IMG/VR virus record: IMGVR_UViG_3300036853_000417
Coordinates: 1 to 64,000 of that record
Source: a virus
Reading direction: 5' to 3' (one strand)
Length of the DNA: 64,000 bases
Shown here: one piece after another, positions 8,618 through 33,089 of the stretch
Numbering within the stretch: the stretch's first letter is position 1
Layout of the letters: each line of letters starts with the position of its first letter
Program-made: the position numbers and the translations under genes
The notes under the pieces: model-generated
Told to the model about the DNA's origin: nothing
Database searches by the model: none
What the model saw: the letters and a program-made list of their open reading frames with translations, nothing else

Positions 8618-8692
8618 ATGAAAACCGCACAAGTAAAACGCCTGATGGAAACCTTTATTGCAACATTGCCACGGGAGCGCACTCTCAACTGA
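8618..8692 (+). pseudogene. Truncated ORF (MKTAQVKRLMETFIATL...) interrupted by CRISPR array 2
   Basis: RBS and ATG behind the promoter; the ORF runs into a partial repeat ATTGCCAC (8665-8672). Confidence 0.55.
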
Positions 8693-8711
8693 ATGCGGCC
8701 ACACAAGAGGG

Positions 8712-11364: not shown

Positions 11365-11764
11365 CATGTTTGAAGATGTTGCAGGCATGTCTGCAATTCT
11401 TGTTGCGTTGGCACTTGAGGCACAAAAGACCATGCCTCGTGCCAGGAAGATGGAATGGGCAACGGAGCTTATCGGTGATCTTGTCCTATTCCATGAGGCT
11501 GCACCAATCATCAGGAGGCTTGAGCAATATACAAAGCAGACACTCCTGAGTCCTACACCGGCAAATCATTTTAGTATAGCACAGGCAAGACGTTTGCTTC
11601 ATTGTGATAGTGAAGAGCTACTTATCACGACAACCGATGCCTTACCTGTTTTTTCGACTATGATTGCCATGTATAATAAAAAAGGAGTTAGTGCGTTTAA
11701 TGAATTTCGCACGAACCTCTGGCATGCAGTCGGAACATATGTTCCACATTACCGGAGAGAATAA
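11354..11764 (+). CDS. Hypothetical protein
   Basis: Likely start MTDSMF after GAGG. Confidence 0.65.
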   Translation: MTDSMFEDVAGMSAILVALALEAQKTMPRARKMEWATELIGDLVLFHEAAPIIRRLEQYTKQTLLSPTPANHFSIAQARRLLHCDSEELLITTTDALPVFSTMIAMYNKKGVSAFNEFRTNLWHAVGTYVPHYRRE

Positions 11765-11788
11765 CGGTGTACGTAGAAAGGGAGAGTT

Positions 11789-12256
11789 ATGGATATTACA
11801 AAAGAATTTGAAAAAGCAAAAGAGGTATTATTGCGAGATGGATCGTTTGATCCTCTTCTTTGTGTTGAGTTTGCATTGAATGGAATACACTATTTCCCAT
11901 TCAATGAATTTCCATTTAGCATCACACTGGAACGCCAGGCTTTCTTTTTCTCAATTGGAGGAATACTTGCTACGCGCTATAAGGATGATGAATTGCGCCA
12001 GGTGTGTTTCATTGTGGAAATGTGGACCAGTGCAAGGGAATGCAAAGCATCGCAAGATCCTGAAAGGAAAGAGGCTCTCATGGCACAGGTGATGAATGTT
12101 GAAGGATCACGCACCTCTTTTTCAGTATATTGCGCTGAAATACTGAGGATGAGGAATACTATTGATCTTCTACCTTATCAAAATATGGAAGTGGTTTTAA
12201 ACAATCTTCTTCCATACCTACTTCATGGATTCCGTACAACCTATAAAGGAGAATAA
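11789..12256 (+). CDS. Hypothetical protein
   Basis: ORF with RBS. Confidence 0.7.
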   Translation: MDITKEFEKAKEVLLRDGSFDPLLCVEFALNGIHYFPFNEFPFSITLERQAFFFSIGGILATRYKDDELRQVCFIVEMWTSARECKASQDPERKEALMAQVMNVEGSRTSFSVYCAEILRMRNTIDLLPYQNMEVVLNNLLPYLLHGFRTTYKGE

Positions 12257-12825
12257 TGAATACAATTGCAGCTATCGTATTTGATATTGATGGTATCCTT
12301 GTTCATCCTGATGCCAGAATTGATGAGGCACTTCGTTTTTATATGAAAACTATCCCCGACGAGCTCGCTGTTCTCAGGACAAGAAAACATGCAGAAGAGA
12401 GTCCAATTTACTGGGGAAAGGTATTTGATCCAGGACTACTTGTGCTTGATACCCCTGTCCCAGAAGCAGCAGAGGCTATCAATCAGTTATCTCATGGACG
12501 CAAAGTCTGGTTCCAGACATCACGACCGGATTCCATGAGGGATGCGACAAGAGACCAACTGATCAGGCATGGGTTTCTCACAACATATCATCTTCCAGAA
12601 GTGTTGATGATGAAACCAACTGATATGCGGATTTACACAGAATTACTCAAGGCAGTTCAAGTTCATGAGAGGGTATGGAGAGATGGCATACGTGACCTGA
12701 TAGTCATTGATGACAAACAGAAAAATCTTGATGCTATCTTGAAATATCTGCCTGTGTGGTGCAATGCACGAGGATATTTGAATCTGTCTGACGCTATGGG
12801 AAAGGAGAAACAACTTGATGGGTAA
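12256..12825 (+). CDS. HAD-superfamily phosphatase (PNKP-phosphatase-like)
   Basis: VFDIDG motif I, TSRP motif II, VIDD motif IV. Confidence 0.8.
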   Translation: MNTIAAIVFDIDGILVHPDARIDEALRFYMKTIPDELAVLRTRKHAEESPIYWGKVFDPGLLVLDTPVPEAAEAINQLSHGRKVWFQTSRPDSMRDATRDQLIRHGFLTTYHLPEVLMMKPTDMRIYTELLKAVQVHERVWRDGIRDLIVIDDKQKNLDAILKYLPVWCNARGYLNLSDAMGKEKQLDG

Positions 12826-14539
12826 GATGCGTGTATATGAAGTTGGCAAACACTTTATCAAAGGAGCAATAACACCGGGAACCCATTTCAATTACCAAAA
12901 TGGGAGACTTGTGCTCGAACTGTATCTTGATCAACTAACAGCAAGTAATATACAGGCTATCGAGACAGGCAAATGTGAATTTGCTCTGACAATAGTTGAG
13001 GATGTTATCTTCCTCCTTTCCAGGTTCGGTACCATGTTACCGTGGTTTGATTCCCCCTATTCCATTCATCTCTTAGAAGAAGGGGACCGGATAGTCCCGC
13101 CTATTCTGGAATCAGAAGAGATGGCAGAACTCACCATATTCCTTGTGTCCTCTGAAGATGGTGTTTTGCGAGCAATCCGGCGTATTCATCTCGGCCATAC
13201 ATTTAGCGTTATGCTCTTTGATGCAATCAGAGTACAGCTCGATATGCCATTTAATAGAGAGGCATACGATAATAGAATTACCACACTTTATGGATTATAC
13301 AGCTCGAATGATCTTGCACAAATGTCCATTATACGTTGCATAGTTGATGCAAGAACAACTAAAAGAGCAAAACATATTCCTCACAAAGATAGCGATAAGC
13401 CACTTATTGAGAAGTACCTGACATACTTACGAATTGCCCATGAGGAAGCATTAGCGCGTATCAAACGTCGTACTCTATCACATGATTTGTATGATTTCAA
13501 TCTTGCGATGGCAAGATTGACCAGTCAGATTTACACCAATATGGCTGAGAAAGCCGTGAAGTATGAACTGGCTCGCAGTGGACAAAATATGACAGAGGTA
13601 CTGCGCCCCAGGCCCCTCATGAAAGAAGACATGGGGTTGCGTCATTTGATGGATATTGCTAACGAGAAATATTCCCTTGATCCAGATATCCCCACTCCTA
13701 TCTTACATATTCCAGATACGCCTATTTGGATTACGCTCGAACAACCCATCGAAATCAATACCGGACTGATAACAGGTCTCTTTTTTTGCTGTCCTGACCG
13801 TGAATTTGAAGACATGTTAAAGCAAAAACAGACAGCGGTCATGCAGCAGGTAATAAAGGAAGCAATCAAATATCCTGATGAAGACTATCGATGGAGTCTT
13901 TCCTTTATTGATTCTGATGGGGTCCCCCATTCACATTATCAGTACTATGAACAAGCACAGAAATGGGAAATTATTCCAGATAGACAGTTCGTTCCCTGTC
14001 CTACTGATAAGTGTACTTCTTATGAAGAATCTCATAAAGAAAGAAGATATCAACATATTTGCCCCTGTCCCTACTGTAGCGCGATCCTTGCTTACTGGAG
14101 GAGCTGGTTTGTTACGGCGCTTCTGGTTGTTGGTCGTGAATTTGCTGCTAATGAGGAAGAGGCATGGCCTGAGAAGACGGAGAATTATAGGAGAAAGGTG
14201 AAGCGTCCAGGGAGCGGAAAGTATGATGAAGTGCCGGTCACTCATACCTACCATTATGTCAGCTTTGACGCGTGTATAAAACGAGCATACCCTCCACAAG
14301 ATCACAAGCCTGTGTCGCGCGGCTCGTGGGTAGCAGATGCACAACAGATAGATCCTGAGAGCGTCATCTACATTCGGCGCAATTTTGGGAAGAGTGACCG
14401 CTTACTTGATCCAGAGCGAAATCCTCGATGGAAAACAAAGAGAGTTGTGCCCGTGAAAGCGCACGAGAAATGCGTGCCTATGAGAGTAGAGAGTGTGCAG
14501 AAGTACATTTACCATGTATTTGCCTCGAAGTATGAGTGA
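12815..14539 (+). CDS. Hypothetical 574-aa protein with a Cys cluster
   Basis: Long ORF; CPTDKC...ICPCPYC; family not recognised. Confidence 0.8.
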   Translation: MMGKMRVYEVGKHFIKGAITPGTHFNYQNGRLVLELYLDQLTASNIQAIETGKCEFALTIVEDVIFLLSRFGTMLPWFDSPYSIHLLEEGDRIVPPILESEEMAELTIFLVSSEDGVLRAIRRIHLGHTFSVMLFDAIRVQLDMPFNREAYDNRITTLYGLYSSNDLAQMSIIRCIVDARTTKRAKHIPHKDSDKPLIEKYLTYLRIAHEEALARIKRRTLSHDLYDFNLAMARLTSQIYTNMAEKAVKYELARSGQNMTEVLRPRPLMKEDMGLRHLMDIANEKYSLDPDIPTPILHIPDTPIWITLEQPIEINTGLITGLFFCCPDREFEDMLKQKQTAVMQQVIKEAIKYPDEDYRWSLSFIDSDGVPHSHYQYYEQAQKWEIIPDRQFVPCPTDKCTSYEESHKERRYQHICPCPYCSAILAYWRSWFVTALLVVGREFAANEEEAWPEKTENYRRKVKRPGSGKYDEVPVTHTYHYVSFDACIKRAYPPQDHKPVSRGSWVADAQQIDPESVIYIRRNFGKSDRLLDPERNPRWKTKRVVPVKAHEKCVPMRVESVQKYIYHVFASKYE

Positions 14540-14564
14540 TATAATAAGAAAGCAGGGACAGCAC

Positions 14565-15641
14565 ATGACTGAGCTTATGAGGTATGGTCAAGATCCACTG
14601 GCAGTGGCGGGTGCAATGGCAAATCAGCAGGCTGAAGAGGGCAAACTTTCACGATATCAGGAACTTCTGTCTCCTGATACTCTCAGGAGACAACGGGCAG
14701 ATCTCATGCTTTTTCAACGATATCTGGCCGAAAAGCGGAATGTGGTTCTGACAGGTCTCTTTGAAGATCTCTCAGAATGGCAGGGAATTACCTATGGACT
14801 GGTGGAGGATTACAAGCGGTGGCAGAAGGAAGAAGGATATGCACTTACCTCGGTTGCAATACGCCTGACGACTATACATGTCTATGCACGATTGGCCTTT
14901 GAAATTGGCCATATCCCTTTAGAAGAATACCTCAAGATCAAGGAGGTGAGAGGGGATAGCCAGCGGCATCGGCAGGCTATCGATGAGGGGAGACCAGTAA
15001 ATAAACGGAGGCGTCCGAATGCCAAACGCGCGGAGCCAATTATCCTATCTGCCAGCCAATGTCGCGCAATCAGGCAGGCTCTCCTGGATAAAATGAACTT
15101 CTGTACGAAATCTGAGTACTGTATGGCTGTACGAGATCTTGCCCTGTTCACCCTACTGTGTTATCAGGGCTTTCGGGTAGGGGAGGTTGTCAGGTTGTGC
15201 CGTAATGAGGTGCACTTAGATCGCGGCCTGATTATTGTGCATAGGCACAAGGTCAGGATAGAACAAAAACACGAACTTCATCCTCTAACTCTATCCGCAC
15301 TCAAAATGTATCTGGAGATAGTTAAAACACGAATATTGCTCTTTGAAGGGACAGATCGAGACCCTTGCATTCTTAATGGAAAGACATATACCGGATCGCG
15401 TGCGATTGATGGTATGGATGAGGACTCTGTTGCATATCGAATTGAAAAGTGCGGCCTGATGATTGGTATAGAGGGCCTGGCACCACATGACCTTAGACAT
15501 TCCTGGGCGAATGATTTAGCTGAGAATGGTACACCGATTGAAGTACTCAAAGAGGCGGGTGGATGGGCAACATATCAGATGCCAGAGCACTATAAAGGAA
15601 AAGCGAAAATTGCAAATAAAGGAGTCAGGCAATCTTCTTGA
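14565..15641 (+). CDS. Tyrosine recombinase/integrase
   Basis: RDLALF...GFRVGEV, PHDLRHSWA, GGW...MPEHY catalytic R-H-R-W-Y set. Confidence 0.92.
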   Translation: MTELMRYGQDPLAVAGAMANQQAEEGKLSRYQELLSPDTLRRQRADLMLFQRYLAEKRNVVLTGLFEDLSEWQGITYGLVEDYKRWQKEEGYALTSVAIRLTTIHVYARLAFEIGHIPLEEYLKIKEVRGDSQRHRQAIDEGRPVNKRRRPNAKRAEPIILSASQCRAIRQALLDKMNFCTKSEYCMAVRDLALFTLLCYQGFRVGEVVRLCRNEVHLDRGLIIVHRHKVRIEQKHELHPLTLSALKMYLEIVKTRILLFEGTDRDPCILNGKTYTGSRAIDGMDEDSVAYRIEKCGLMIGIEGLAPHDLRHSWANDLAENGTPIEVLKEAGGWATYQMPEHYKGKAKIANKGVRQSS

Positions 15642-20567: not shown

Positions 20568-21176
20568 CTATTCTTGTGAATTATCCCTTTTTAAACCAAT
20601 ATATAAATCATCTAATTCAGCAATCTTTCGCATATCTTCTATTCCCCAATACACCATTCCTTCATATTTATCAGAAATTGGAAGCAAAATAGGATGACAG
20701 AATAATCCAGTAGGTGCAGGACGATGCTCAGTTGGTACGCACTGTTTATCTAATGCTTTCTCTGACTTCGGTTTAATGATATGAAAGACATAGTGAGGAA
20801 TACGTGTAAGTCGTTCAGATTTGAGATAAATTTCCCAGCACCATTGATCAATACCTGATTGGTATCTTTTATTTTTGCGATAGTAGGAGCATTCATCTTT
20901 TTCCTTAATATCTGCAAAAAAGTGAGGAGGAAGTCCTTTAGGGGTAAGTTGTCGATTTTGATAAGGCCAAAATGCCTCAATATCTTGTACTGGCAAATTT
21001 TGCTTACAAACTTCATGAGATAAATAGAATCTTGGGCCATGTTGTTGTAATTCATTGCTTCTACCACGATGTAGAATGACAAACTTCAGATCTTTAAGAA
21101 AGTTCGCTATTATTTCCTCCTGATTCCATGCGTGCTTTAACGTTTCTAGTTTTTTTTCGGGAGTTTCATTCCACAT
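20568..21176 (-). CDS. Hypothetical protein
   Basis: ORF overlapping the methyltransferase stop. Confidence 0.7.
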   Translation of the reverse strand: MWNETPEKKLETLKHAWNQEEIIANFLKDLKFVILHRGRSNELQQHGPRFYLSHEVCKQNLPVQDIEAFWPYQNRQLTPKGLPPHFFADIKEKDECSYYRKNKRYQSGIDQWCWEIYLKSERLTRIPHYVFHIIKPKSEKALDKQCVPTEHRPAPTGLFCHPILLPISDKYEGMVYWGIEDMRKIAELDDLYIGLKRDNSQE

Positions 21177-22770
21177 TTGCTAGTCTCCTCTGCATAGCCA
21201 TAAAGAAAGTGTTATCCTTCTCAATACCAATGAACCTTCTTCGCAATTCTTTGGCTGCTGCGCCACTAGATCCCACACCAGCAAAACCATCAAAGACCGT
21301 ATCACCTCGATTGCTGCTTACTTGTATCAGATGCTTTAGAACTGATACAGGCTTTTGTGTGGGATGAAGAGTATCTCCTTTAGCATCAACTATTCTTTCT
21401 TTTCCAGAACAGATTGGTGCATCAATATAATCATGCATTTCATTCTCACCCTGCCAGTTAAGTGTATGTCTTCCCTTACCTTTAGTGAAAAAGAGGATGT
21501 ACTCACAGCTACTGCGATAAGTTGCTTTTACAATTTGTGGGCCTGGATTGGTCTTGTGCCATGTGATCATGACATGTACGTGTAAGTTTGCTTTTTGCAA
21601 GACTTCTCGCAAGTAAGAAACATACCAATAGGAACAAAAGACATAACCCGATCCATGTGGACGAAGAATTCGCATCCACTCTTGTGCCCATAAATCAAAG
21701 AGTGCAATGAACTCTTTAGGGATGTATTTATCCCACGCCCCAAAGTCTTGTGAGCGGTTATTTCTACCATCAAGATCAAATTCCCGCTCATTAGCTATAT
21801 TGTATGGAGGATCGGTTACAATAAGGTCAATGCTTTCATTAGCGATCTTCTTGACTTCTTCATAGAAATCACCATGAATCAGAGAAATGCTATTCTTCTG
21901 TTCATACTCATCGCGTATCGAAGCAATCAGCTTTTGCAACTTGGGGTGTGTCTCTTGCTTCCAATCAGCATCATATGCCCCACTATATACCTCATCGATA
22001 AGTTGCGTTGTGTATGTATCTCCTAGTGATTCGATCTGTTCTAGTGCATATTTCTTCATCTGGTTACGTGCTTTGTAGTTTCCAGCTAGAACTTTGAATT
22101 TTCCTTTAGAAAAGTTAGAATTAGTAATCAGTTCTTGAACCAGCTCCAATTGTTGTGAGGGCGTGAGGTCAAGAATTGAGCGGAGTAAGTTTTCTGTAAA
22201 GGGGGCGGTCGCCCCCTCAAGGGGGGCGACACCATTTTCCTCACCAGGGGCGGCACTCTCAAAAGTCGCCCCTATCATACTCCAAGCCTCTTTCTCTATT
22301 TTTCTGAGAGCAGCGTAGTCCTTCACACTCTCCTTATTCCATCCAAGCATCTGTCCAACATCAGCTTGTGTATATTTCTTCTTCCCCTGTTCATCCTCTT
22401 CTTCCAACCTTGCCCAAATAAACTCAGCATAGGTAACTAGTGTTGATGGGACAACCGTCTCAGCAGCATTGTTGCACTGCATTGCCATCTGATAGAATTC
22501 AGCTTCTGTGAATCCAGATTTAACTACGCAAGGGACAGAGATTATATCTAGTCCTTTAGCCGCCTCATGGCGATGATTGCCATCTATGAGAAGATAACCA
22601 TCTTCATAAGGAGTCACTGTTAAGGGGTAATTCTCTAAAAAACCTGCCCAACGCATACTTTCCTGTAAACGGGCAATACCAGATGCGCTGAGTCTACGCA
22701 CTGATAATTTAGATATAATTTTATTTAGAGGAAGTATTACAAAATGAGGAGTTTCAACTTCAGTTGTCAT
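21166..22770 (-). CDS. ParB-like N-terminal domain fused to an N4/N6 DNA methyltransferase (beta class)
   Basis: LIDGNHRHEAAK (ParB-N); TDPPYN, HPTQKP, DGFAGVGS. Confidence 0.92.
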   Translation of the reverse strand: MTTEVETPHFVILPLNKIISKLSVRRLSASGIARLQESMRWAGFLENYPLTVTPYEDGYLLIDGNHRHEAAKGLDIISVPCVVKSGFTEAEFYQMAMQCNNAAETVVPSTLVTYAEFIWARLEEEDEQGKKKYTQADVGQMLGWNKESVKDYAALRKIEKEAWSMIGATFESAAPGEENGVAPLEGATAPFTENLLRSILDLTPSQQLELVQELITNSNFSKGKFKVLAGNYKARNQMKKYALEQIESLGDTYTTQLIDEVYSGAYDADWKQETHPKLQKLIASIRDEYEQKNSISLIHGDFYEEVKKIANESIDLIVTDPPYNIANEREFDLDGRNNRSQDFGAWDKYIPKEFIALFDLWAQEWMRILRPHGSGYVFCSYWYVSYLREVLQKANLHVHVMITWHKTNPGPQIVKATYRSSCEYILFFTKGKGRHTLNWQGENEMHDYIDAPICSGKERIVDAKGDTLHPTQKPVSVLKHLIQVSSNRGDTVFDGFAGVGSSGAAAKELRRRFIGIEKDNTFFMAMQRRLANVE

Positions 22771-23004
22771 ATCTCTCCCTATTCACTACTATGCTTACAC
22801 TGCCCTCTCACTGCATCAATGGCATATCGAAGAGCCTCAACAGTCTCACGGTTAGTTGGGAAATCATCCTGAAATGAGCGAGGAGTTAGCATTTCTACAA
22901 GCCATTGATAGCGCTTTATTATACGTATCACGTCTAACAGCACTCGTATAGAATGCTCAGCTTCGCTTAGTGGGCGTATATCTTTTGTTTTATCGCTCAT
23001 TTCT

Positions 23005-23481
23005 TTATTTCTCCTCAACAATATCAATATCACTTCTAACAAAATGTGTACTAAAACAACGGAAAATATCCTCTGTACAGAGTCCAAGTGTGTTCCCATA
23101 CCCTTCTGTGGCTGGCTTACTATCCCTCACCTCGCGCCAGTATTCTCCTGCCCGACCCTCTAATTGCTCAACCGCAGGACAGAGCATATTGCGTTCATAG
23201 TTTGGCTCCATGATTGAACCATAAAGCCACTCCTCAATGTCTTCTGCATTGCGGTATGAGAGGTAGAGTGCAGCCTGGTAAAAAAGCATCTTGTGGAGCA
23301 TTTTTTCATCTGCAATTAAGAATTGCCTCAGAAGTGCCAGATCAAATTGCTTTACTTCCTCATCGTTGCCCGACCTCGTAATGGGTGTGTCGGACACACA
23401 TATGTCAAGATACAACGTTACCCGCAAACGTCGCCTGAGTAGCTCATTATCTTGTTGTGCATCGTTTGCTATACCTATCAT
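23005..23481 (-). CDS. Hypothetical protein
   Basis: Likely start MIGIAND after AAGGAG. Confidence 0.6.
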   Translation of the reverse strand: MIGIANDAQQDNELLRRRLRVTLYLDICVSDTPITRSGNDEEVKQFDLALLRQFLIADEKMLHKMLFYQAALYLSYRNAEDIEEWLYGSIMEPNYERNMLCPAVEQLEGRAGEYWREVRDSKPATEGYGNTLGLCTEDIFRCFSTHFVRSDIDIVEEK

Positions 23482-23671
23482 AGTGTTGTCTCCTTGTCGT
23501 GATGAGTTTACGAGATATCTGGACGGCTTTTTCAGATACATTTGGGGTCTCTCTCTTATTATAGATCCTCTACCGAACACACAGGAAGGAGTTTCCTCAT
23601 TGTGTTGTACGGATAATCAGACATGCTGTATACTGGTATCAGACAGATGATTTAGAGAAAATAGGGGATGA

Positions 23672-24334
23672 ATGATTAACCTTGTTGCTAAGTCGATAGA
23701 TATCCTACAGGCTCATCCACGCAATTACCGTATCCATCCTGAGGATGAAATTGAGCATCTCATGGAGAGTATTCGTCTACATGGCATCTATCGCAATATT
23801 GTCATTGCACAGGATGGAAAGACGATTCTGGCTGGACACGGAGTTGTAGAAGCTGCTCGTAGACTTGGGATGACACAGGTCCCTGTGTTTCAGACAAACT
23901 ATCAACCTGATGATCCACATGCTTTAAAACTGCTGGTTGGTGATAATGAGATCCAGCACCTTGTTGAGGCTGATGATAGGGCACTCACGGAACTCTTACG
24001 TGAACTGAAAGAGATTGATGACCTACTTAGCACTGGTTATGATGAGATGATGCTTGCTAATCTCGTCATGGTCAGTCGGCCTGCATCTGAGATTACCGAT
24101 CTGGATGCAGCCTCACAATGGGTAGGACTACCTGAGCATGATAGAGAAGGAGAGCGCCGACTTCAAATTATCGTGAACTTTGCCAATGAGGAAGACCGCA
24201 AAGCATTCTGTCATCTGCTCGGCCTTGAGTCCAGCAAGATTGCAAATGAAGGAACAGGAAAGTCTATCTGGTGGCCGAAGCAAGATCGAGATGATGTGAA
24301 ATCCCTTCGCTTTACTGATGGGAGACAAGGATGA
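23672..24334 (+). CDS. ParB-like N-terminal domain protein
   Basis: HPRNYRIH...SIRLHG...ILAGHGVVEAARRLG...LVGDN. Confidence 0.88.
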   Translation: MINLVAKSIDILQAHPRNYRIHPEDEIEHLMESIRLHGIYRNIVIAQDGKTILAGHGVVEAARRLGMTQVPVFQTNYQPDDPHALKLLVGDNEIQHLVEADDRALTELLRELKEIDDLLSTGYDEMMLANLVMVSRPASEITDLDAASQWVGLPEHDREGERRLQIIVNFANEEDRKAFCHLLGLESSKIANEGTGKSIWWPKQDRDDVKSLRFTDGRQG

Positions 24335-25290
24335 CTCACCGAATACTCCCAAACTATCCTATCTATATTCCCAGCAAAGGTCGTGCTGATTGCTGCTATA
24401 CTGCCAAATGTCTTGATGCTGGTGAAGTTCCATTTCATCTCGTTATTGAACCACAAGAAGAAGCTCTCTATCGGGTGCAGTTCCCCAGTGCTCATTTTCT
24501 AATTCTCCCCTGGAATGGTGATGATCAGGTACGACGTGATTTCTGCCAGCAACGTCGTATTGAGAATGGGGGCCTCATTGCTGCACGCAACTGGATTAAA
24601 GAGCATGCCACAGCAACAGGCAGTGAAAGACATTGGCAGTTAGATGACAATATCACAGAGTTCTATCGGCGCTACAAGGGTAAGCGTATCCGATGTGAGT
24701 CGGGTCTTGCACTACGTGCCTGTGAAGACTTTACTGACCGTTATGAGAATGTTGCGATCTCAGGTCTCAATTATTATATGTTTGTTATGGATGATAAGCA
24801 GACATCTCCACTTGTTATTAATTGTCATGTGTATTCTTGCTCCCTGATCCTGAATGCACTTCCCTTCTGCTGGCGTTTGGCCTACAATGATGATACGGAT
24901 ATATGCCTGCAAGTCCTCTCAACAGGGATATGGTGTACGGTACTCATCAATGTCTTCATGTGTAGGAAGTTGCGCACAATGACTGTACAGGGTGGCAATA
25001 CTGCTGATCTCTATCAAGGTGATGGACGATTGCATATGGCGCGTTCACTTGAACGGGTATGGCCAGGCATCGTTGAAACAAAGCGTCGTTTTCATCGACC
25101 ACAACATGTCATAAAAGAGAACTGGAAATGCTTTGATACTCCGCTTCGATTGAAACCGGACATTGATCTAACACAACTTCCTCCAACCAATGAATATGGG
25201 ATGGATCTTTGTCAGATCAAAGATGTAATCAAAAGTCCCCGAATCCAAAGATTACATGATGCATGGCAACAGACACATAGATCTGAGTAA
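24331..25290 (+). CDS. TET-associated (GREB1-like/TAGT) DNA glycosyltransferase
   Basis: YPIYIPSKGRAD, VIEPQE, ARNWIKEHA, HWQLDDNI, YNDDTDICLQVL, GGNT. Confidence 0.85.
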   Translation: MTHRILPNYPIYIPSKGRADCCYTAKCLDAGEVPFHLVIEPQEEALYRVQFPSAHFLILPWNGDDQVRRDFCQQRRIENGGLIAARNWIKEHATATGSERHWQLDDNITEFYRRYKGKRIRCESGLALRACEDFTDRYENVAISGLNYYMFVMDDKQTSPLVINCHVYSCSLILNALPFCWRLAYNDDTDICLQVLSTGIWCTVLINVFMCRKLRTMTVQGGNTADLYQGDGRLHMARSLERVWPGIVETKRRFHRPQHVIKENWKCFDTPLRLKPDIDLTQLPPTNEYGMDLCQIKDVIKSPRIQRLHDAWQQTHRSE

Positions 25291-25450
25291 GGATTTCTTA
25301 TTATGAGGGGCAATTTTATCTTTAGTGATGCATGGTCTTTTTCACAAAAAGTGAGGTTTGCATGGCAAAAATGCCATTGTTGAAGTTGCCCCTTGAATAG
25401 TGCTGGTATGCTCTGTATACTTATAGTAGATTACTGGAAAAGAGGAAAAA

Positions 25451-26035
25451 GTGGACAGGGGAAATTCATCACTTTTCGTTCTTGGCGCTCCTGGGACTGG
25501 AAAATCAATCCTGTTACGTTCTTTTCTTCAATCCCTCGGATCTTTTGGAGAGTCTTATCAGTACAACCTGATTACCGGACAATGGTTTTCTGACTATTCA
25601 TTGTTGGTTTTGGGAGAATATGTATCTGAGGAATCCTTTCCCGGCACTGATCGCTGGTCAATGGAGGTACAACGGTGTGCAGCAGGATTTTGGCAGGACA
25701 TTGCTCAACAATCTTGTACAGTTCTTGGTGAGGGAAGTCGCATTGCAACACGTCCCTTTATTGATGCGGCACGTATCTCTACGCTGGTCTCTCTTGTTTT
25801 CTTACAGGTACACACTGATATTCTACAGGCACGCAGGGAATGGAGAGGAAAGCAAAATGCATCCTGGGTGAAAGGGATAGAGACACGCATAGAGAATCTT
25901 CAGCACTATTATCAAAATCAATTGCCCTGTTTTACCTGGAAGAATGAAACAGACCAGGACCTCACACGCAATCTGAATGCATTGCATACAATGTTATTTA
26001 GCTCGATGTCTGTACATATGGAGGACCTATCATGA
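25451..26035 (+). CDS. P-loop nucleotide kinase (5-hydroxymethyluracil DNA kinase-like)
   Basis: GAPGTGKS Walker A; LGEY...FPGTDRWSM, GEGSR, RG.QN..WVKG. Confidence 0.8.
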   Translation: MDRGNSSLFVLGAPGTGKSILLRSFLQSLGSFGESYQYNLITGQWFSDYSLLVLGEYVSEESFPGTDRWSMEVQRCAAGFWQDIAQQSCTVLGEGSRIATRPFIDAARISTLVSLVFLQVHTDILQARREWRGKQNASWVKGIETRIENLQHYYQNQLPCFTWKNETDQDLTRNLNALHTMLFSSMSVHMEDLS

Positions 26036-26838
26036 GTACTACAGTTGTTACCCATAAAACGATTCCGCTTTCACTCATTGATACGCACGCTCGTAATTAT
26101 CGCAAGCATCCTCCTGCACAATTAGAGAGGCTGCGTGCCTCGCTTATCCGATTCTCGCAGGTGCGTTCTATCGTCGTGCAGGCAAAAGAAGGTGGTCGCT
26201 ACAGGATACTGGCAGGGCATGGAGTTGCATCGGCTGCACTTGAATGTGGAATTCTCAAGCTGCATTGTAACGTTGTTCCTGACAACTGGGATGAGGGGAC
26301 CTGTAATGCATATCTTGTTGCTGATAATGAGGTTGAACGAGGGGTGGATCTTGATAATCAACTTTTAGCTGAATTGCTGAAAGAGCAGGTGGATGCTGGA
26401 TACTCGCTAGATGCATTAGGTATTCAAGAGAAAGAATTTACTGATCTTTTGCAAATACTCCAGGAATCTGATCGTGCTGTCCCGTCTTTTGCTGAACTTG
26501 AAGAAGAGGAGGAGGATGTACGACAGTCGATGACCCTTCCTCAAGGGAGAACTGCCGATATTGTGAACTCTAAGAATATCAATCAAAAAGGAGATGGTGT
26601 TGCATTCGGGAGAGATCCAAAGCAATGGTTGCAGCAGTATGAAACAACTATGCTACGACAGATAGTTCTCATCTATAAAAGCGATGAATATACACGTGTT
26701 TTAACCCAATTTATGGCTATTCGTCGCCAAAATAATCTGGAAACAAATGCCGATGTTGTAGGAGAACTTCTTTCATTTTATTTAAAGAGTCATCCAGAAC
26801 TTGAAGAGGAGGCAAAGCAATATGCCTCTTCAGTCTGA
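26032..26838 (+). CDS. ParB-like N-terminal domain protein
   Basis: HARNYRKHP...ILAGHGV...LVADNE. Confidence 0.85.
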   Translation: MSTTVVTHKTIPLSLIDTHARNYRKHPPAQLERLRASLIRFSQVRSIVVQAKEGGRYRILAGHGVASAALECGILKLHCNVVPDNWDEGTCNAYLVADNEVERGVDLDNQLLAELLKEQVDAGYSLDALGIQEKEFTDLLQILQESDRAVPSFAELEEEEEDVRQSMTLPQGRTADIVNSKNINQKGDGVAFGRDPKQWLQQYETTMLRQIVLIYKSDEYTRVLTQFMAIRRQNNLETNADVVGELLSFYLKSHPELEEEAKQYASSV

Positions 26839-27676
26839 GCCAAGAGTCATCACTCGACCAAGACGTGAGCTTGATCTCAAGTCATATCGTTTTCGGAGAG
26901 CAGAGATACGTGACTATACAGAATTGTTGACCTCTTCCACTATTTTGCGAGATGAAGCTAGTGGAAGAGTGCGTGTTGTTTATCTCGTATTATCTGATGA
27001 TTGTAATGAGATTGTCCAGTCACTGCGCTCTATTCAATTTGAAATAGATGAGCGTGCATCAGGAATGCTTTCTCAATCTCGGATATTTGGATATCGTCCA
27101 AGAATTACCATTCGAGATGATTTTTGTACGACTGCTGCTCTTGCTCGCGAGCATCCTTTTGCCTACAAACTTATTTCTTCCTATGCAGCAAAGGTTTCAG
27201 ATTACTACCATCAGTTCAATCCTGAGTTGTTTATAGAACATCAACGGATAGTAGGTCGTGTGCTTCCTGAATGGAGGCTGGAGGGATCGGTTTTTACCTC
27301 TGGAATTATTAATAAGAATAATCCTTTGCCTTATCACTTTGATCAAGGAAATTTTCAGGATGTTTGGAGTAATATGCTTGTTTTCAAGCACCAAATAGGA
27401 GAGGGGTATCTTTCTGTTCCTGAATATGACATTGGTTTTGAGGTAGCACATAATTCTCTTCTGATGTTTGATGGGCAAAACATTCTACACGGAGTAACAC
27501 CTATTTATTTAGAAGGACCTGAAGCTTTTCGTTATTCCATCGTTTACTATAGCTTAAAATCAATGTGGAATTGTCTGTCTCCCGATGAAGAGGTGAGGCG
27601 TATTCAACGTTTGCGTACCTCTCGTGAAGAAAAAAGATTTTTCAAATATCTTCCACCAAAGGAGATGCCAGAATGA
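26822..27676 (+). CDS. TET/JBP-family 2OG-Fe(II) DNA base dioxygenase
   Basis: FTSGIINKNNPLPYHFDQGN (HxD), LHGVTP (distal H), RYSIVYY (2OG Arg); ATG 26822 after GAGGAGG. Confidence 0.85.
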   Translation: MPLQSEPRVITRPRRELDLKSYRFRRAEIRDYTELLTSSTILRDEASGRVRVVYLVLSDDCNEIVQSLRSIQFEIDERASGMLSQSRIFGYRPRITIRDDFCTTAALAREHPFAYKLISSYAAKVSDYYHQFNPELFIEHQRIVGRVLPEWRLEGSVFTSGIINKNNPLPYHFDQGNFQDVWSNMLVFKHQIGEGYLSVPEYDIGFEVAHNSLLMFDGQNILHGVTPIYLEGPEAFRYSIVYYSLKSMWNCLSPDEEVRRIQRLRTSREEKRFFKYLPPKEMPE

Positions 27677-28569
27677 TCATGTCTGCAAAGGTATTTGAGG
27701 ATTTTGCATTCTTCTGTCAGCATCAACTTGTGAGTAAAGATGTTGATCCCGTCTATCCATTGTTGCGGTTGCTGGTATCTCCTCTCTTGGAGGAGCAGGC
27801 ACTCTGGCACACACTCCTCTATGTTGGATATTACTCTCTCCCTTCATCTCGTGCCGCTTTTGATCGTGTTCCCAGTGTTGATGCACTTCCCTTGTCCCTG
27901 TCACGTTTACCAACTGGGGTAGAGCGAAGAGGATTTCGTGGAGGAACCATTACCAGGCATGTTGATAGCTTGCTTTATTTGCACGAGACATTTGGAAGTT
28001 TGAAAGCATGGCTCTGTCAGGAATTTGGGAGAGACATACGACAGAACTGGATTCATTTACAAAATACCCTGCAGCAGGCATGGGGGAATGGACGGTGGGC
28101 TGCTTATAAGACCGGAGAAATTTTACAGAAAGTCCATGATTTTCCAGTGCAGCCAACAGATATGGGACATGAGTTTTCAACGGGTCCTCGTCATGGTCTT
28201 GCCCTTTTCTATGGGAATGCTTGGGGGAATGCTCCTGATGCTATTCAAACACTGAATGCTCAGGGAGAAAATCTCCTACAGTGTCTTGCAGAACAAGGGA
28301 TACACATGGGCATAGAGCAGTTAGAGACAATGCTCTGTGATTTTTATTCCCTGGTAGGGGGACGCTATTATGTTGGTCATGATATTGATATGCTACAGAC
28401 ACAATTACTTGCCTCCTCTCTTTCATCAGATATCCTTGAACCTATCTGGCAAGCAAGAAAAAGAGCATTACCACACGCATATCTGGGAGAAATACAAGGC
28501 TGGACAGGAATTGATAGGGAGCGGAAAAAAGTGTATCAAAGAACAGGAAGGGTGATTATTCGTGGCTAA
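27673..28569 (+). CDS. Amino acid:DNA transferase (aGPT-Pplase2-like, HhH-glycosylase fold)
   Basis: DVDPVY, LPTGVERRG, GRWAAYK, GPRHGL, ETMLCDF...YYVGHDID. Confidence 0.85.
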   Translation: MIMSAKVFEDFAFFCQHQLVSKDVDPVYPLLRLLVSPLLEEQALWHTLLYVGYYSLPSSRAAFDRVPSVDALPLSLSRLPTGVERRGFRGGTITRHVDSLLYLHETFGSLKAWLCQEFGRDIRQNWIHLQNTLQQAWGNGRWAAYKTGEILQKVHDFPVQPTDMGHEFSTGPRHGLALFYGNAWGNAPDAIQTLNAQGENLLQCLAEQGIHMGIEQLETMLCDFYSLVGGRYYVGHDIDMLQTQLLASSLSSDILEPIWQARKRALPHAYLGEIQGWTGIDRERKKVYQRTGRVIIRG

Positions 28570-29452
28570 ACAGTGTCACCTTGTGGGTATGGGGCTGACT
28601 GGAGCGATGGTTGCATGGATACTCTATCAACATGGCTATACATTCACATGGGAGGATAATGACCAATCTGTTTGTGCCTGGAAAGCTTCAACAGGACTGA
28701 TTTACCCTTGTGGGGATGACGGAGAAATGAAAGCATACTCTATCTGGAAACAATGGCATGGAGGAAGAGCATCCTGGTCTGGTTGCCAGGTAATTGAAAA
28801 ATGTGTAGAAGCTGGATCATTCTGGTTTGTGACGAAGAATCCTCCCCACGGGGGAACCTATTCAATTGAGCGCTCAATTGGATTGCTGCATCTTGCCTCT
28901 CTTTCATCATATCACTTGAATGTTCAGCATTTTGTGCGGCAAACCAGGCAGATATTTTCTGCTTGCCGCAAAGATAGATCTCATGGTCAGATCATTATTG
29001 CGAATGGATATGGATCACGCCTCCACCATTATCTTTGGGGCTGGTCTGCTCGCGTTCACCTCTCTTTTTCACAGGATTTGCTCAATGCTTCCCCATTGCG
29101 TCCAACATTCTATTTACGTCGCTCACGTTATCAATTTGGATATGCCAATATCATTCCTGGGGAATCTGTCTATTATGCAGGTTCATCCCTCATTCATCAG
29201 GCTGAACCAAAATCCTTGAATATTGATTCTAAATATGAACGATGGAAACAACATGTATTTGATACAACTGGAGGCAAGATATGTGTAACAGGTGTTTTGG
29301 ACAGGCAAGAAGGATGGAGACCTGTATCAGACAAGCAAGATCTCGCATGGATTACACAAGAGAATGGGATGCTGATCGTGCGCCCAATGGGTAGCTCCGG
29401 GGTCCGTCTTGCCCCATTGCTATGTGAAGCATTGCTTAAAATACTGGGATAG
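28562..29452 (+). CDS. FAD-dependent oxidoreductase (DAO/glycine oxidase-like)
   Basis: VGMGLTG Rossmann motif, AWKASTGL, EGWRP, GSSGVRLAP. Confidence 0.8.
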   Translation: MAKQCHLVGMGLTGAMVAWILYQHGYTFTWEDNDQSVCAWKASTGLIYPCGDDGEMKAYSIWKQWHGGRASWSGCQVIEKCVEAGSFWFVTKNPPHGGTYSIERSIGLLHLASLSSYHLNVQHFVRQTRQIFSACRKDRSHGQIIIANGYGSRLHHYLWGWSARVHLSFSQDLLNASPLRPTFYLRRSRYQFGYANIIPGESVYYAGSSLIHQAEPKSLNIDSKYERWKQHVFDTTGGKICVTGVLDRQEGWRPVSDKQDLAWITQENGMLIVRPMGSSGVRLAPLLCEALLKILG

Positions 29453-29461
29453 GGGAAAGAT

Positions 29462-29995
29462 ATGCGCGAAACACCTGATTCAGCTTTGGCATTTGAGCGA
29501 TATTATGACCTGGGAGAGGATCGTACCTTAGCCCTTCTTGCCCAAAAAATGCGTCAGGAAATGATCAGACAACAACAGATCCTGAGGGATACCAAACCCA
29601 TACCAACAGAAGCAACACTGCTCTCTCGTTATAAGAAATGGTCAAAGGCACACAAATGGCAGGAGCATGTCATTCAGCGTGACCGCGCACAGGCAGAAAA
29701 GGACCGTAAGAAGAGGCTAAAAGCCATAGAGCAGATGAATGATGAACATTCACTGTTTGGACGAACACAGGCAATGCAGGCAGTAAGACAAATCAAAGAA
29801 TTGATTGATGCAAAGAAACTTGGGGCGCCTGCAGCAGTGCAGCTCTTTAAATATGCAACCGATCTGGAACGGGTAGCGCGGGGGGCTGCTACCGAAGTGG
29901 CACATCTTCAGCATACAGGTGAAGAAGGTGGACCAATTGTCATTAAGACCGAATGGGGGACGGTAAAACTTGATCGCAATGAAGAGGAGATATAA
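29462..29995 (+). CDS. Terminase small subunit (putative)
   Basis: N-terminal HTH-like segment, KWSK..KW.E, and position directly before terL. Confidence 0.75.
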   Translation: MRETPDSALAFERYYDLGEDRTLALLAQKMRQEMIRQQQILRDTKPIPTEATLLSRYKKWSKAHKWQEHVIQRDRAQAEKDRKKRLKAIEQMNDEHSLFGRTQAMQAVRQIKELIDAKKLGAPAAVQLFKYATDLERVARGAATEVAHLQHTGEEGGPIVIKTEWGTVKLDRNEEEI

Positions 29996-31332
29996 TGCCT
30001 ACTGCTACTCGCGAGTATCGCGTTCGGCTCTACACTCCTCATCCAGGTCAAGTCCCTCTCCATGAAAGTCGGGCGCGTTTTCGTGTGATAAATTGCGGCA
30101 GAAGATTCGGGAAAACGTATTTCGCCGCGAATGAAGAATGTAAGTTTGCCCTTGACCACAATGATGTTCTCTGCTGGTGGGTAGCTCCAACATATAGACA
30201 ATGTAAGATTGCCTATCGTTTGATGAAGAGAGCCTTAAAAGAGGTGCTGGTCAAGCATAGTGATACGGATCTTCGCTTAGAAATCATCAATGGTTCTGTT
30301 ATCGAGTGTCGGTCATGCGATAAACCAGACAACCTGCTTGGAGAAGGTATACACCTGCTCGTCGTTGATGAGGCCGCCATGCTTCCAGATAGCACGTGGT
30401 TCAATGTGCTGCGTCCCATGCTTTCAGACACAAATGGGAAAGCTATCTTTATCTCAACACCCAAGGGTCGCAACTGGTTTTACACGATGTACTTGCGGGG
30501 GTTGGACCCACTTCAGAAAGATTATGAGTCCTTTACCAGGCCCACATCCGCCAACCCCTACATTGATCCAGAAGAAATTGCGCATGCAAAAGAAGATTTG
30601 CCAGAGGATGTCTATGAGCAAGAATACCTGGCAGAATTTAAGGAGAATGCAGCGGGCGCGTTTCGGGGGATTGATGCCTGTATTGAAGGAGAGCTACAGG
30701 AGCCTCGCCCTGGAGTCATTTATGAAATTGGGTATGATGTAGCCAAGCATCGGGATTTTTCAGTGATCACGGTGCTCAATACTTCAACACAGCATGTAGA
30801 CTGGTGGTACAGGGTCAATCACGTGGATTACGTTGTTCAAGTCCAAGATTTAAAAGATATTGCAATGCGCTATAATAATGCGCACGTACTGATGGATGCT
30901 ACCGGCGTTGGGGACGCGGTGATGGAGATGGCACGCCTGGTTGGGGTCACTGTTGATGGATTTCTCTACACCAATACCTCTAAAACCAATCTTATTGGTG
31001 ATCTGATTGTGGGTATCCAGCACCGGGCCATTACATTTCCTGATATTCCGGTACTGGTCGGGGAGCTACGTGCAATGCAGGTCAAATATTTACCAAGTCG
31101 TCTGGTTCAATATGAAGCCCCTCCCGGCTATACGGATGATGGAGTGCATTCACTGGGTCTCTGCTACAAAGCAGGTGCAACAGGTGGTACAATAGCCTTA
31201 TCATCTTCTCATCAGGACAAGGGTGATGAACTTCCTGTACAACATCAATCTGATGATGATCTGATTATGGAGCGCCAGGCGCAGATGGCAAGATTGCTTG
31301 GACGTGTTCGTATTACATCAACATTTGGATAG
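29995..31332 (+). CDS. terL: Terminase large subunit
   Basis: CGRRFGKT, VVDEAA, ISTPKGRNWFY, GYDVAKHRDFS, DATGVG, DD.V. Confidence 0.95.
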   Translation: MPTATREYRVRLYTPHPGQVPLHESRARFRVINCGRRFGKTYFAANEECKFALDHNDVLCWWVAPTYRQCKIAYRLMKRALKEVLVKHSDTDLRLEIINGSVIECRSCDKPDNLLGEGIHLLVVDEAAMLPDSTWFNVLRPMLSDTNGKAIFISTPKGRNWFYTMYLRGLDPLQKDYESFTRPTSANPYIDPEEIAHAKEDLPEDVYEQEYLAEFKENAAGAFRGIDACIEGELQEPRPGVIYEIGYDVAKHRDFSVITVLNTSTQHVDWWYRVNHVDYVVQVQDLKDIAMRYNNAHVLMDATGVGDAVMEMARLVGVTVDGFLYTNTSKTNLIGDLIVGIQHRAITFPDIPVLVGELRAMQVKYLPSRLVQYEAPPGYTDDGVHSLGLCYKAGATGGTIALSSSHQDKGDELPVQHQSDDDLIMERQAQMARLLGRVRITSTFG

Positions 31333-31355
31333 ACTTGTACAGATGTGTGGAGAAC

Positions 31356-33089
31356 GTGGTGAGTAGGAGACGATACAAAAAAGCAAAAAAAGGAAATTGG
31401 CAACATCTTATTGAGAATGAAGAGTTGCGTACTGCATTCTTGCGCTTTGCACGAAGTATTCATACAGCAGAGGAATCGGCAGAGCAGATAGCAGTGCGTG
31501 CTGGCCGACCTGCTTCACAGTTTATCGATTTACGCGAGGCTGGTCGTATTCTGGACCGATATCCTCAGTTATCTGGTTATCTCTTGAGTATTCGAGAACG
31601 CCAGGAAGAGCTACAAGATGCTCAAATGAGGCATAAAGAATCCCCCACACATGAAGTATCTCAGGCTGCGGCGCTTGGAGGATGGGCAGGATATCAAAAT
31701 GTGACACCACAGGGAGTCCCTAATGCACGTGCCTTGCGCAATTTTGCAGATGAATGTGAATTTGTAGCGGCAAGTATTAATCATTATTGTGATCGTATCA
31801 GCAGATTTAAACTAACGGTACTCCCCATCGATGAACAAAAACCATATAATCGCTCAGTTGAAAAAGAGATGATTGCGCTTCTTGAAAATCCTAATGAACT
31901 GGGAGATACCGTTGCTGATATTGTAAGTACCATCACTCGTGATTATCTTACCATTGGACGCGGCATTATCAGCAAAGCAATGTCAGTGCGGCGCATTCCT
32001 ACAACGCTCTATATGGAGGATGCAGCCCTGTTTCGGATTGATCCAAAGTGGAGTGGAAATGCTGAAGAACCTCGCTATCTCTACCAACCAAATTCACAGA
32101 CAAAGATCCCACTACGCAATGATGAGATTATTTGCTTACTTTGCGGTCCATCCACCTTTCGTCTATCATTTTCTCCTGTCCAGATCTTGAGAAACACCAT
32201 TCTCTCTGACCTCAAAGCGACAGAGAGCGCATCCCGACTGGTCGAGCACAAACCTCCTCCTCACCTTGTTCAACTGCCAGGAGCCAGCGCAGCACAAATT
32301 GATCGTTTGCGATCAACCTATGATGCAGATATTGCAGGACATCGTGAGATCATGTTTCTGGGTGGCCCTAACCCGGCGCAGATCAAACCGATGATTTTCT
32401 CATTGCGGGACAATCAGTGGATGGAGTGGCTTGAATATCTGGCACGCAAAATAGCTGTTGTGTTTGGACTGTCTATACAAGATCTTTCCTTCACCGGAGA
32501 TGTCAACAGGGCAACCGCAACCAGCCAGCAAGAGCTATCAGAAAGCAAGGGACTTATCCCACTGATGCTTCGTATTGAAATGTATTTCCATCATCATCTT
32601 CTTTCAGATTTTGCTCCTAAGCGAAATGGTATTCCAGATATGCGTGCGCTCAACTTACGTGTTGCATATCCTGAGATTGGAGAAGCTATGCGTATGCTTC
32701 ATGTAGAGCAAACAATCCATCTGGCAACAAAAAGTCTTGCTGGTCTTCCCTCGCAAACGCTCAATCAGGTGCTCACTGCGCAGGGGTTAGAGCCTGTGCC
32801 AGGAGGAAATACTTTTTATCTCAAAACAGCAACCGGCGCTATTCCCTGGTTGTCTTATGACAATGATTTTGGTCCGACCATTCAGGAGAATCCAACAGAA
32901 GAAGAGAATAATTCTCAAAATCCCACGAATGAAGAGGAGAACAAGAGCTATCGCACCCCAAAGCGAGCAACCATTCAAAAATCACATCCATATGATAAGG
33001 AGGCACGCGATACTTTGGGTACCGCAATAGAACATATTTTCCACTCGATAGAAAAGCAAGGATCAGAGCAATTGAGGAGGCTACAATGA
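31356..33089 (+). CDS. Portal protein
   Basis: Follows terL; LLENPN, SPVQIL, RKIAVVFGL...DVNRATA HK97-portal-like motifs. Confidence 0.85.
   Translation: MVSRRRYKKAKKGNWQHLIENEELRTAFLRFARSIHTAEESAEQIAVRAGRPASQFIDLREAGRILDRYPQLSGYLLSIRERQEELQDAQMRHKESPTHEVSQAAALGGWAGYQNVTPQGVPNARALRNFADECEFVAASINHYCDRISRFKLTVLPIDEQKPYNRSVEKEMIALLENPNELGDTVADIVSTITRDYLTIGRGIISKAMSVRRIPTTLYMEDAALFRIDPKWSGNAEEPRYLYQPNSQTKIPLRNDEIICLLCGPSTFRLSFSPVQILRNTILSDLKATESASRLVEHKPPPHLVQLPGASAAQIDRLRSTYDADIAGHREIMFLGGPNPAQIKPMIFSLRDNQWMEWLEYLARKIAVVFGLSIQDLSFTGDVNRATATSQQELSESKGLIPLMLRIEMYFHHHLLSDFAPKRNGIPDMRALNLRVAYPEIGEAMRMLHVEQTIHLATKSLAGLPSQTLNQVLTAQGLEPVPGGNTFYLKTATGAIPWLSYDNDFGPTIQENPTEEENNSQNPTNEEENKSYRTPKRATIQKSHPYDKEARDTLGTAIEHIFHSIEKQGSEQLRRLQ

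Follow-up and report, generated by a model that had tools for sequence, protein, structure and literature searches.

The seven genes at positions 23,672 to 29,452 of the IMG/VR virus record IMGVR_UViG_3300036853_000417 encode predicted DNA-modifying enzymes and their partners and run directly into the terminase genes. They raise the question whether they form a single, undescribed hypermodification system or an assembly of parts that are already known. The DNA analysed here (the window) comprises the initial 64 kb of this 82,150-base record from a soil metagenome. A preliminary description of the window had proposed that one dioxygenase of the Tet/JBP family (TET) hydroxymethylates thymine directly on the DNA and that its product feeds two branches, one ending in a sugar and one in an amino acid or an aminomethyl group.

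Overall, the region is best read as a rare mosaic within a known kind of thymidine hypermodification pathway, ParB-dependent and fed by TET, the open lead being a TET-independent cassette of a ParB-like protein and a TAGT-family glycosyltransferase. That two separable DNA-modification cassettes are stacked here upstream of terS and terL in a late operon is a reading to which we give somewhat better than even chances. It draws on the genes present and their conserved order, on catalytic residues, folds and phylogeny; every chemical step, as well as which amino acid is used and what the glycosyltransferase acts on, is our inference from these data.

Predicted genes of a known thymidine hypermodification pathway in front of the terminase genes

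Gene identities were taken from Pfam and PHROG domain searches of the open reading frames of the window. The seven-gene list of the preliminary description, with all frames on the plus strand and running into terS and terL, was confirmed in its coordinates as well as in its domains, and the profile and structure searches suggested there returned PF12851, PF18724, PF18751, PF20691 and the DAO fold. For comparison we used 80 loci with relatives of the window TET and 63 loci with relatives of its amino acid:DNA transferase (AADT, formerly aGPT-Pplase2), all from IMG/VR, considering the genes within 8 kb. Judged by the sequences of its genes, the downstream part of the region (cassette A, 25,451 to 29,452) belongs to the ParB-dependent pathway of post-replicative thymidine hypermodification.

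The first gene of cassette A (25,451 to 26,035, plus strand) encodes a P-loop protein of 194 amino acids, a predicted 5-hydroxymethyldeoxyuridine (5-hmdU) DNA kinase. It matches Ploopntkinase3 (PF18751) with 1.3e-8 and 35.1 bits (cut-off 27), has the Walker A motif GAPGTGKS and stands beside the AADT gene, as in most of the 63 AADT-relative loci, which is the setting of kinases of the 5-HMUDK type; its substrate is predicted. A profile of the window kinase scores 173 bits on the open reading frame L032:2290-3057, which covers gene 4 ("5-hmU DNA kinase") of the Gordonia phage Wooper.

The next gene (26,032 to 26,838, plus strand) encodes ParB2, a ParB-like protein of 268 amino acids and predicted activator of the dioxygenase. 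It is assigned by phrog_620 (2.9e-23), gave no match in the Pfam search and shares 37% identity across the N-terminal 110 amino acids with ParB1, the first protein of the region. The gene overlaps the start of the TET gene, so that a ParB-like gene is co-located with the dioxygenase; in most of the 80 TET-relative loci, too, the gene immediately before TET is a ParB gene. Counted from a TTG codon, the TET gene extends from 26,801 to 27,676 (plus strand, 291 amino acids) and the overlap comprises 38 bases (26,801 to 26,838). The ATG at 26,822 (MPLQSEP...) is the likelier true start, since the relatives begin near there.

The TET protein is a predicted 5-methylpyrimidine dioxygenase (PF12851, 4.2e-10, 39.5 bits, cut-off 34.9). 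Its catalytic core HxD...H...R is intact (H179-x-D181, H230 and R244) and, together with C258, invariant across seven relatives. C258 is the last conserved cysteine, and beyond it follows a conserved C-terminal stretch of about 30 amino acids with E264, R272, R275 and E276. Such a C-terminal extension, located by C280 in the numbering of 5mYOX176, has been described as exclusive to ParB-dependent 5mYOXs (PMC13229309), and judged from that description the window TET has it. The protein is 53-59% identical to four IMG/VR relatives and 34-36% identical to the products of gene 2 of the actinophages discussed below.

These features agree with a pathway that is already described. Lee et al. (2021) proposed the in situ formation of 5-hydroxymethyluracil and a thymidine hypermodification fed by TET_JBP proteins (PMC8989533). 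O'Toole et al. (PNAS 2026) identified the 5mYOXs of phage clade C1 as post-replicative thymine dioxygenases, of which one subclass needs a ParB-like activator on double-stranded DNA, as shown for 5mYOX176 and ParB176; this subclass is "consistently linked" to P-loop kinases, AADTs and GATases, and the commonest neighbours reported in that work are glycosyltransferases (31%), ParBs (27%) and terminases (19%) (PMC13229309). The window shares with clade C1 the ParB gene upstream of the Tet/JBP dioxygenase, the C-terminal extension, the link to a kinase and an AADT, the lack of an adjacent C5-methyltransferase and the frequent proximity to a terminase. It differs by the addition of a second ParB and a TAGT; moreover, that study did not rebuild the downstream chemistry by kinase, AADT and flavoenzyme, and no enzyme tested there has been shown to be the window protein.

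The AADT gene (27,673 to 28,569, plus strand, 298 amino acids) matches ADDT (PF18724) with 9.7e-18 and 65 bits, and its profile finds the PDB entries 25qc (1.2e-13) and 8z2m, which is gp46 of Pseudomonas phage PaMx11 (8e-9). Its residues D25, W142, K146, E218, T219 and C222 align with D24, W146, K150, E243, T244 and C247 of gp46, which in the published mechanism hold the glycine, bind the metal and provide the nucleophilic cysteine (PMC11472151). The window protein thus has both hallmarks of an AADT, the cysteine of an E-T-x-x-C motif with its glutamate and threonine ligands and the aspartate, tryptophan and lysine that hold the amino acid.

The last gene of cassette A (28,562 to 29,452, plus strand) encodes a protein of 296 amino acids with a GxGxxG motif at residues 9-14. 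Sequence searches gave no match in Pfam, PHROG or the PDB, and a profile search only weak matches to N-terminal Rossmann domains. An AlphaFold2 model calculated from an alignment of 23 homologs (pLDDT 94.7) is similar to D-amino-acid oxidase (DAAO) 1c0k (VIA Z 23.2, rmsd 3.0 over 273 residues) and to MnmC (VIA Z 20.4). [quoted passage not shown] According to this model the protein is a full-length FAD fold of the DAO/glycine-oxidase/MnmC type, and the earlier label of an FAD oxidoreductase was correct. Its size of about 290 amino acids, its GR2/DAO-type fold and its position directly after the AADT are those of NGTO, but sequence homology to gp47 was not found: tblastn against 50,697 phage records returned only seven Gordonia phages and one Rhodococcus phage, and not PaMx11. 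The enzyme is therefore predicted to be NGTO-like in its role as a FAD-dependent amine oxidase or lyase but to belong to a separate lineage of the DAO fold.

Together, these proteins suggest the following pathway. On the double-stranded DNA of the phage, the Tet/JBP dioxygenase, activated by ParB2, would convert thymidine to 5-hmdU. The P-loop kinase would then form 5-phosphomethyl-dU, and the AADT would use Cys222 as nucleophile to exchange the phosphate for an amino acid, most likely glycine. Finally, the flavoenzyme with the DAO fold would oxidise the appended amino acid and release 5-aminomethyl-dU. This core logic, with hydroxymethylation on the DNA, kinase, AADT and a trimming flavoenzyme, had been anticipated by the preliminary description and fits the residues of the AADT and the fold of the flavoenzyme. 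If glycine is used, unacetylated 5-aminomethyl-dU is the likely end product of the core set. The amine is expected to stay unacetylated because no acetyltransferase of the GNAT type was found in the 82-kb record, as had been noted before for the window, in contrast to a related locus (L002) where a GNAT gene follows the flavoenzyme gene.

The comparison with PaMx11 supports this pathway. In this phage, gp46 to gp49 are PUGT/AADT, the FAD lyase NGTO, an acetyltransferase and 5-HMUDK (PMC8989533, PMC11472151), so that the window shares with it a logic built on kinase, AADT and FAD amine oxidase, the fold class of the flavoenzyme and, in its AADT, the catalytic residues of gp46. However, PaMx11 obtains its 5-hmdU from a dUMP hydroxymethylase before replication, whereas the window has TET and ParB and no hydroxymethylase was found; the acetyltransferase of PaMx11 has no counterpart in the window record, and gp47 is not detectably similar in sequence.

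A matching gene content is found in cultured actinophages. The genes 1-6 of Wooper (OP910132) are annotated as ParB-like, Tet-like J-binding protein, aGPT-Pplase2, 5-hmU DNA kinase, hypothetical and terminase, and a "five-gene thymidine hypermodification system" has been reported for the Rhodococcus phage Tonitrus (PMC11955845). The same five families thus stand directly before the terminase, including a "hypothetical" protein of 290 amino acids that corresponds to our enzyme with the DAO fold. The identity between Wooper and the window amounts to 36% for TET, 37% for AADT and 33% for the flavoenzyme (Wooper gp5, E 9e-44). A four-gene form with ParB, TET, a hypothetical protein and the kinase precedes the terminase in the Mycobacterium phage Hangman. 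The window differs in that its kinase comes first and that it belongs to a distant phage lineage, while the actinophages have neither a TAGT nor a second ParB. Since these five genes are already annotated in front of the terminase in Wooper and Tonitrus, and since PMC8989533 and PMC13229309 came earlier, the system is not undescribed: its core pathway has been published and annotated, and the claim of novelty cannot be upheld. What the window adds is a clear instance from nature of thymidine hypermodification that is ParB-dependent, fed by TET and without an acetyltransferase, from which free 5-aminomethyl-dU is predicted. Moreover, as Wooper gp5 is homologous to the window flavoenzyme, the model provides the fifth, "hypothetical" gene of the actinophages with a fold and with a likely role as amine oxidase or lyase acting after AADT.

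The gene set of cassette A recurs in variable order. TET and kinase genes occur in at least 45 of the 63 AADT-relative loci, about 40 of which also have a ParB gene, and about 18 of the 63 have a flavoenzyme gene after the AADT. The order is ParB-TET-AADT-FAD-kinase in L005 and AADT-FAD-GNAT-kinase-ParB-TET in L002 and L003, which are the closest relatives (TET 59%, AADT 49%, flavoenzyme 44% identity). Their AADT-FAD-GNAT-kinase part has the order of gp46-49 in PaMx11. L002 itself is a jumbo-sized record, a 327-kb IMG/VR contig with direct terminal repeats. At its positions 5955-13388 the AADT-FAD-GNAT-kinase genes are followed by two tandem ParB-TET pairs, a duplicated dioxygenase module in which the second TET has 50% identity to that of the window.

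The ParB1-TAGT pair as a proposed separate cassette

The upstream part of the region (cassette B, 23,672 to 25,290) consists of two genes on the plus strand. The first one (23,672 to 24,334) encodes ParB1, a ParB-like protein of 220 amino acids (phrog_620, 4.6e-25) whose score for ParB_N (PF02195; 24.7 bits) is slightly below the Pfam cut-off of 26.3. Its stop overlaps by four bases the start of the gene of its partner (24,331 to 25,290), a TAGT-family glycosyltransferase of 319 amino acids with GT-A fold. Membership in this family is clear (PF20691, 1.5e-38, 133 bits against a cut-off of 27.5; phrog_842, 3e-33) and the acidic motifs D105-D106 and D188-x-D190 are kept. The 24 closest relatives, all from IMG/VR (L007-L030), are 39-71% identical to the window enzyme, and homologs from cultured phages, including T4-like Aeromonas phages, 29-39%.

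In a maximum-likelihood tree the window TAGT is nested in a clade of 23 rows (support 96/95). The loci of the other 22 rows are without a detected TET, so that the only TET-linked member of the clade is that of the window, and the TAGTs from ParB-TAGT-TET or ParB-TET-TAGT loci fall in other clades. The clade also includes the cultured Vibrio phages 1.124.O (L034) and henriette 12B8 (L035). Gene contents were counted for the IMG/VR records behind the clade, with the genomes of these two Vibrio phages left out. Tet_JBP (PF12851) was detected in none of 24 records, a clade-specific TET profile (A3) in none of the five records that are at least 92% complete, and the thymidylate-synthase family in none of 20; a C5-methyltransferase is present in three of 17. 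A ParB1-like gene lies directly upstream of the TAGT gene in 8 of 11 distinct inner-clade members, and terminase genes of several families are found nearby in the clade loci, in many of them with packaging and structural genes alongside.

The arrangement in the window points in the same direction. ParB1 and TAGT are set apart from the kinase gene by 160 bases (25,291 to 25,450), the sole real gap of the cluster as defined by the coordinates of the open reading frames, which is best read as the seam between the two cassettes. The unusual feature of this region is the combination of a TAGT with an AADT or kinase, for which the 80 TET-relative loci gave no example, nor did the 63 AADT-relative ones. 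Three apparent cases of TAGT next to AADT (L143, L144, L169) were rejected: the "TAGT" match is an open reading frame with a family-A DNA polymerase domain, Pfam finds no TAGT domain in it, and the setting is an M6-like cluster of AADT, PLP, radical-SAM and kinase genes. Judged by the gap, by its own ParB, by its TET-less clade and by the absence of the combination from all 143 loci, cassette B is separable and has the look of a unit of its own, stacked with cassette A at one pre-terminase site. That it acts independently of TET, on the same acceptor as its relatives in phages without TET, is in our view the likelier reading, with about even chances.

These data also bear on the proposal that a single TET supplies both branches. 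According to this proposal the TAGT would glycosylate a part of the 5-hmdU in the manner of base J while kinase and AADT take another part, both competing for the hydroxymethyl groups. In base J synthesis (JBP1/2 and a glucosyltransferase) as well as in the ParB-TAGT-TET modules of phages, a TET/JBP protein and a glycosyltransferase share one locus and thymine is oxidised on the polymer. About 25 of the 80 TET-relative loci have a TAGT-family enzyme next to ParB-TET, so that a base-J-like use of TET-made 5-hmdU by the window TAGT is plausible; this tight association of other TAGT clades weighs against an independent cassette B. The two cassettes are neighbours on one strand, the acidic motifs of the TAGT are intact, and PF20691 members of the phages T2 and T6 act on sugars linked to hydroxymethylcytosine (PMC13216743). 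However, the window TAGT sits in another clade, in which no other member is TET-linked and whose records lack TET and a ThyA-type hydroxymethylase, including the five that are at least 92% complete. The TAGT also has a ParB of its own, the gap parts it from the kinase, and the two branches are combined in no related locus. The supply of both branches by one TET is thus weakened, and a role of cassette B as a second branch off TET-made 5-hmdU appears doubtful to us, though still a reading to be reckoned with. The parallel to T2 and T6 is likewise partial. Their beta-glucosyl-HMC-alpha-glucosyltransferase shares PF20691 and the GT-A fold class with the window enzyme (PMC13216743), but it extends the glucosyl-5hmC (5hmC, 5-hydroxymethylcytosine) of a pre-replicative pathway, whereas the window is without alpha- or beta-glucosyltransferase and without dCMP hydroxymethylase.

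It might also be that the TAGT does not act on DNA and glycosylates a protein, for instance one of the virion or of packaging, or some other molecule, its proximity to the terminase reflecting late expression only. This would fit the clade phages without any known hydroxylated base and the packaging and structural genes beside TAGT in many loci. Nevertheless, those PF20691 members whose function is known act on DNA-linked sugars, and the ParB-like partner is conserved, proteins of this kind being companions of TET, C5-methyltransferases and N6/N4 methyltransferases, which are all DNA enzymes. We therefore regard a target other than DNA as very unlikely.

If cassette B is independent, one could go further and assume that ParB1 and TAGT are a self-sufficient two-gene cassette for DNA glycosylation that needs no hydroxymethylpyrimidine and uses as acceptor a position in DNA for which no glycosylation is known so far, that ParB-like proteins are general loaders or activators of post-replicative DNA modifiers (dioxygenase, glycosyltransferase, C5-methyltransferase and N6/N4 methyltransferase), and that this phage packages DNA with two chemically unrelated hypermodifications. 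No need for a hydroxymethylpyrimidine is proposed because the clade phages are without TET, without ThyA-type hydroxymethylase and mostly without C5-methyltransferase. This extended reading is speculative and, in our estimation, unlikely. What can be stated is that the ParB-TAGT cassette recurs ahead of terminase genes in phages that lack a known source of a hydroxylated base. If it modifies DNA, a DNA glycosylation chemistry or an acceptor is still to be found, and ParB-like proteins, if the extended reading is true, would be general partners of DNA-modifying enzymes beyond the dioxygenases. Cultured phages are at hand for the fifth gene of the actinophages (Wooper) as well as for cassette B (the Vibrio phages 1.124.O and henriette 12B8).

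The ParB-like proteins had also been supposed to tie the modification enzymes to packaging. For this the position of the genes is the only support, while ParB has been shown to activate a dioxygenase on double-stranded DNA (PMC13229309). Late co-expression, together with a hot spot where accessory cassettes recombine, offers a better explanation for the recurrent position in front of the terminase.

Origin of the modified base

The assignment of thymine as the substrate of the TET had been based on the lack of a C5-methyltransferase and a dUMP hydroxymethylase. This lack holds for the window, but a C5 cytosine DNA methyltransferase of 280 amino acids is encoded 1 kb past its end, at positions 65,003 to 65,845 of the record (G000; L001:1486-2328). 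The argument from the absence of such an enzyme therefore fails at the genome level. The protein matches PF00145 (24 bits, cut-off 22) and phrog_363 (1.2e-32) and has all core motifs, namely I, IV (PCQ), VI (ENV), VIII (RxR) and X (NAIPP), together with a very short target-recognition region. Its gene, 36 kb from TET, has tail genes around it and immediately precedes that of the tape measure protein. A search for relatives with this protein returned one locus only, L038, where a homolog with 47% identity has a ParB-like gene as neighbour and precedes the TET, AADT and DAO genes by 2 kb.

In the same search of the rest of the record, which had been suggested by the preliminary description, neither a member of the thymidylate-synthase family nor ThyX was detected in the 82 kb. 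A family-A DNA polymerase (PolA) was not found in the 82-kb record either. According to CheckV the record is 68% complete.

Several points weigh against our reading of cassette A. The C5-methyltransferase is probably active, and canonical C5-methyltransferases flank ParB-TET in L004 and L050, L038 likewise having one in the neighbourhood; in these three relatives the gene adjoins TET. The sequence of the window TET gave no match to PDB chains and a profile search only weak matches to NgTet1, CMD1 and TET2, so that the residues for substrate specificity cannot be read and the choice between thymine and 5-methylcytosine (5mC) is not settled by the sequence. The AADT is only a distant relative of the enzymes specific for glycine (phmmer E 5e-4 against gp46), and the identity of the amino acid is therefore a guess. 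The family of the flavoenzyme has no detectable sequence similarity to gp47. Finally, a hydroxymethylase or an acetyltransferase could lie in the missing part of the genome.

From the first of these points a model with two substrates can be derived. The C5-methyltransferase would provide 5mC, the dioxygenase would oxidise both thymine and 5mC, the TAGT would glycosylate the resulting 5hmC in the manner of the MT-5mYOX-GT pathways (Burke 2021; Pyle 2024), and kinase and AADT would use 5-hmdU; in the extreme form the dioxygenase would accept only 5mC. This is in line with the complete motifs of the methyltransferase and with the neighbourhood in L038, L004 and L050. In addition, characterised phage thymine dioxygenases oxidise 5mC as well in vitro (PMC13229309), and the glycosyltransferases of operons with a methyltransferase and TET glycosylate 5hmC (PMC8256090; bioRxiv 2023.12.21.572611). 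Against it stands the gene arrangement. The 5mC dioxygenases of the clades A and B have a methyltransferase as immediate neighbour and no ParB, kinase or AADT (PMC13229309), whereas in this record the sole C5-methyltransferase is 36 kb off among tail genes and the TET operon contains kinase and AADT. Moreover, 5-hmdU is the only known substrate of 5-HMUDK and AADT, and the window TAGT clade is not linked to C5-methyltransferases. We consider this model quite unlikely and thymidine the better candidate for the substrate of cassette A; some formation of 5hmC from 5mC and its use by the TAGT is possible.

In L004 (5266-7312) and L038 (3743-5778), ParB-like genes lie directly upstream of the C5-methyltransferase genes, beside the ParB-TET pairs. 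In L038, a DUF3850/ASCH protein is further encoded between methyltransferase and TET, and a DAO detectable by Pfam follows the AADT.

Layout of the locus and of the record

The region belongs to a series of ten consecutive plus-strand genes between 23,672 and 33,089, in which the seven modification genes are followed by terS (terminase small subunit, 29,462 to 29,995; phrog_6299, 3.5e-16), terL (terminase large subunit, 29,995 to 31,332; PF03237, 3.7e-15; phrog_2, 7e-47) and the portal gene (31,335 to 33,089; assigned by the Pfam and PHROG searches), all on the plus strand. Apart from the gap at 25,291 to 25,450, no more than 9 bases separate one gene from the next, unless the two overlap. The gap contains one weak promoter-like match (25,393 to 25,421), which is no more than chance gives, and a scan of 22,700 to 30,100 for promoters and terminators yielded a number of sites not above that of shuffled sequence. 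The limits of the operon are therefore based on gene spacing alone. No RNA run was listed in a search for sequencing runs, which gave a single soil-metagenome DNA run that is probably the source of the record. At the DNA level the 7.6-kb region has no match among the 50,697 phage records.

The contig ends carry an exact inverted repeat of 127 bases (G000 1-127 and 82,024-82,150), from which the "ITR" label of the record originates. Since 127 is a common k-mer length of assemblers, these ends are probably an assembler artefact rather than a genome end and hence no proof that the record is complete. The record further encodes a major head protein, a tape measure protein and an endolysin, and the phage is probably tailed. 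Because of a tyrosine integrase gene (14,493 to 15,641 of the window, plus strand; phrog_1, 3.1e-23), it is probably also temperate.

Upstream of the cluster and transcribed away from it lies a gene on the minus strand (21,166 to 22,770) for a fusion protein of 534 amino acids, which consists of ParB_N (residues 27-97) and an N6/N4 DNA methylase (PF01555, 6.7e-38). Together with ParB1 and ParB2, three ParB_N genes are thus found within 6 kb.

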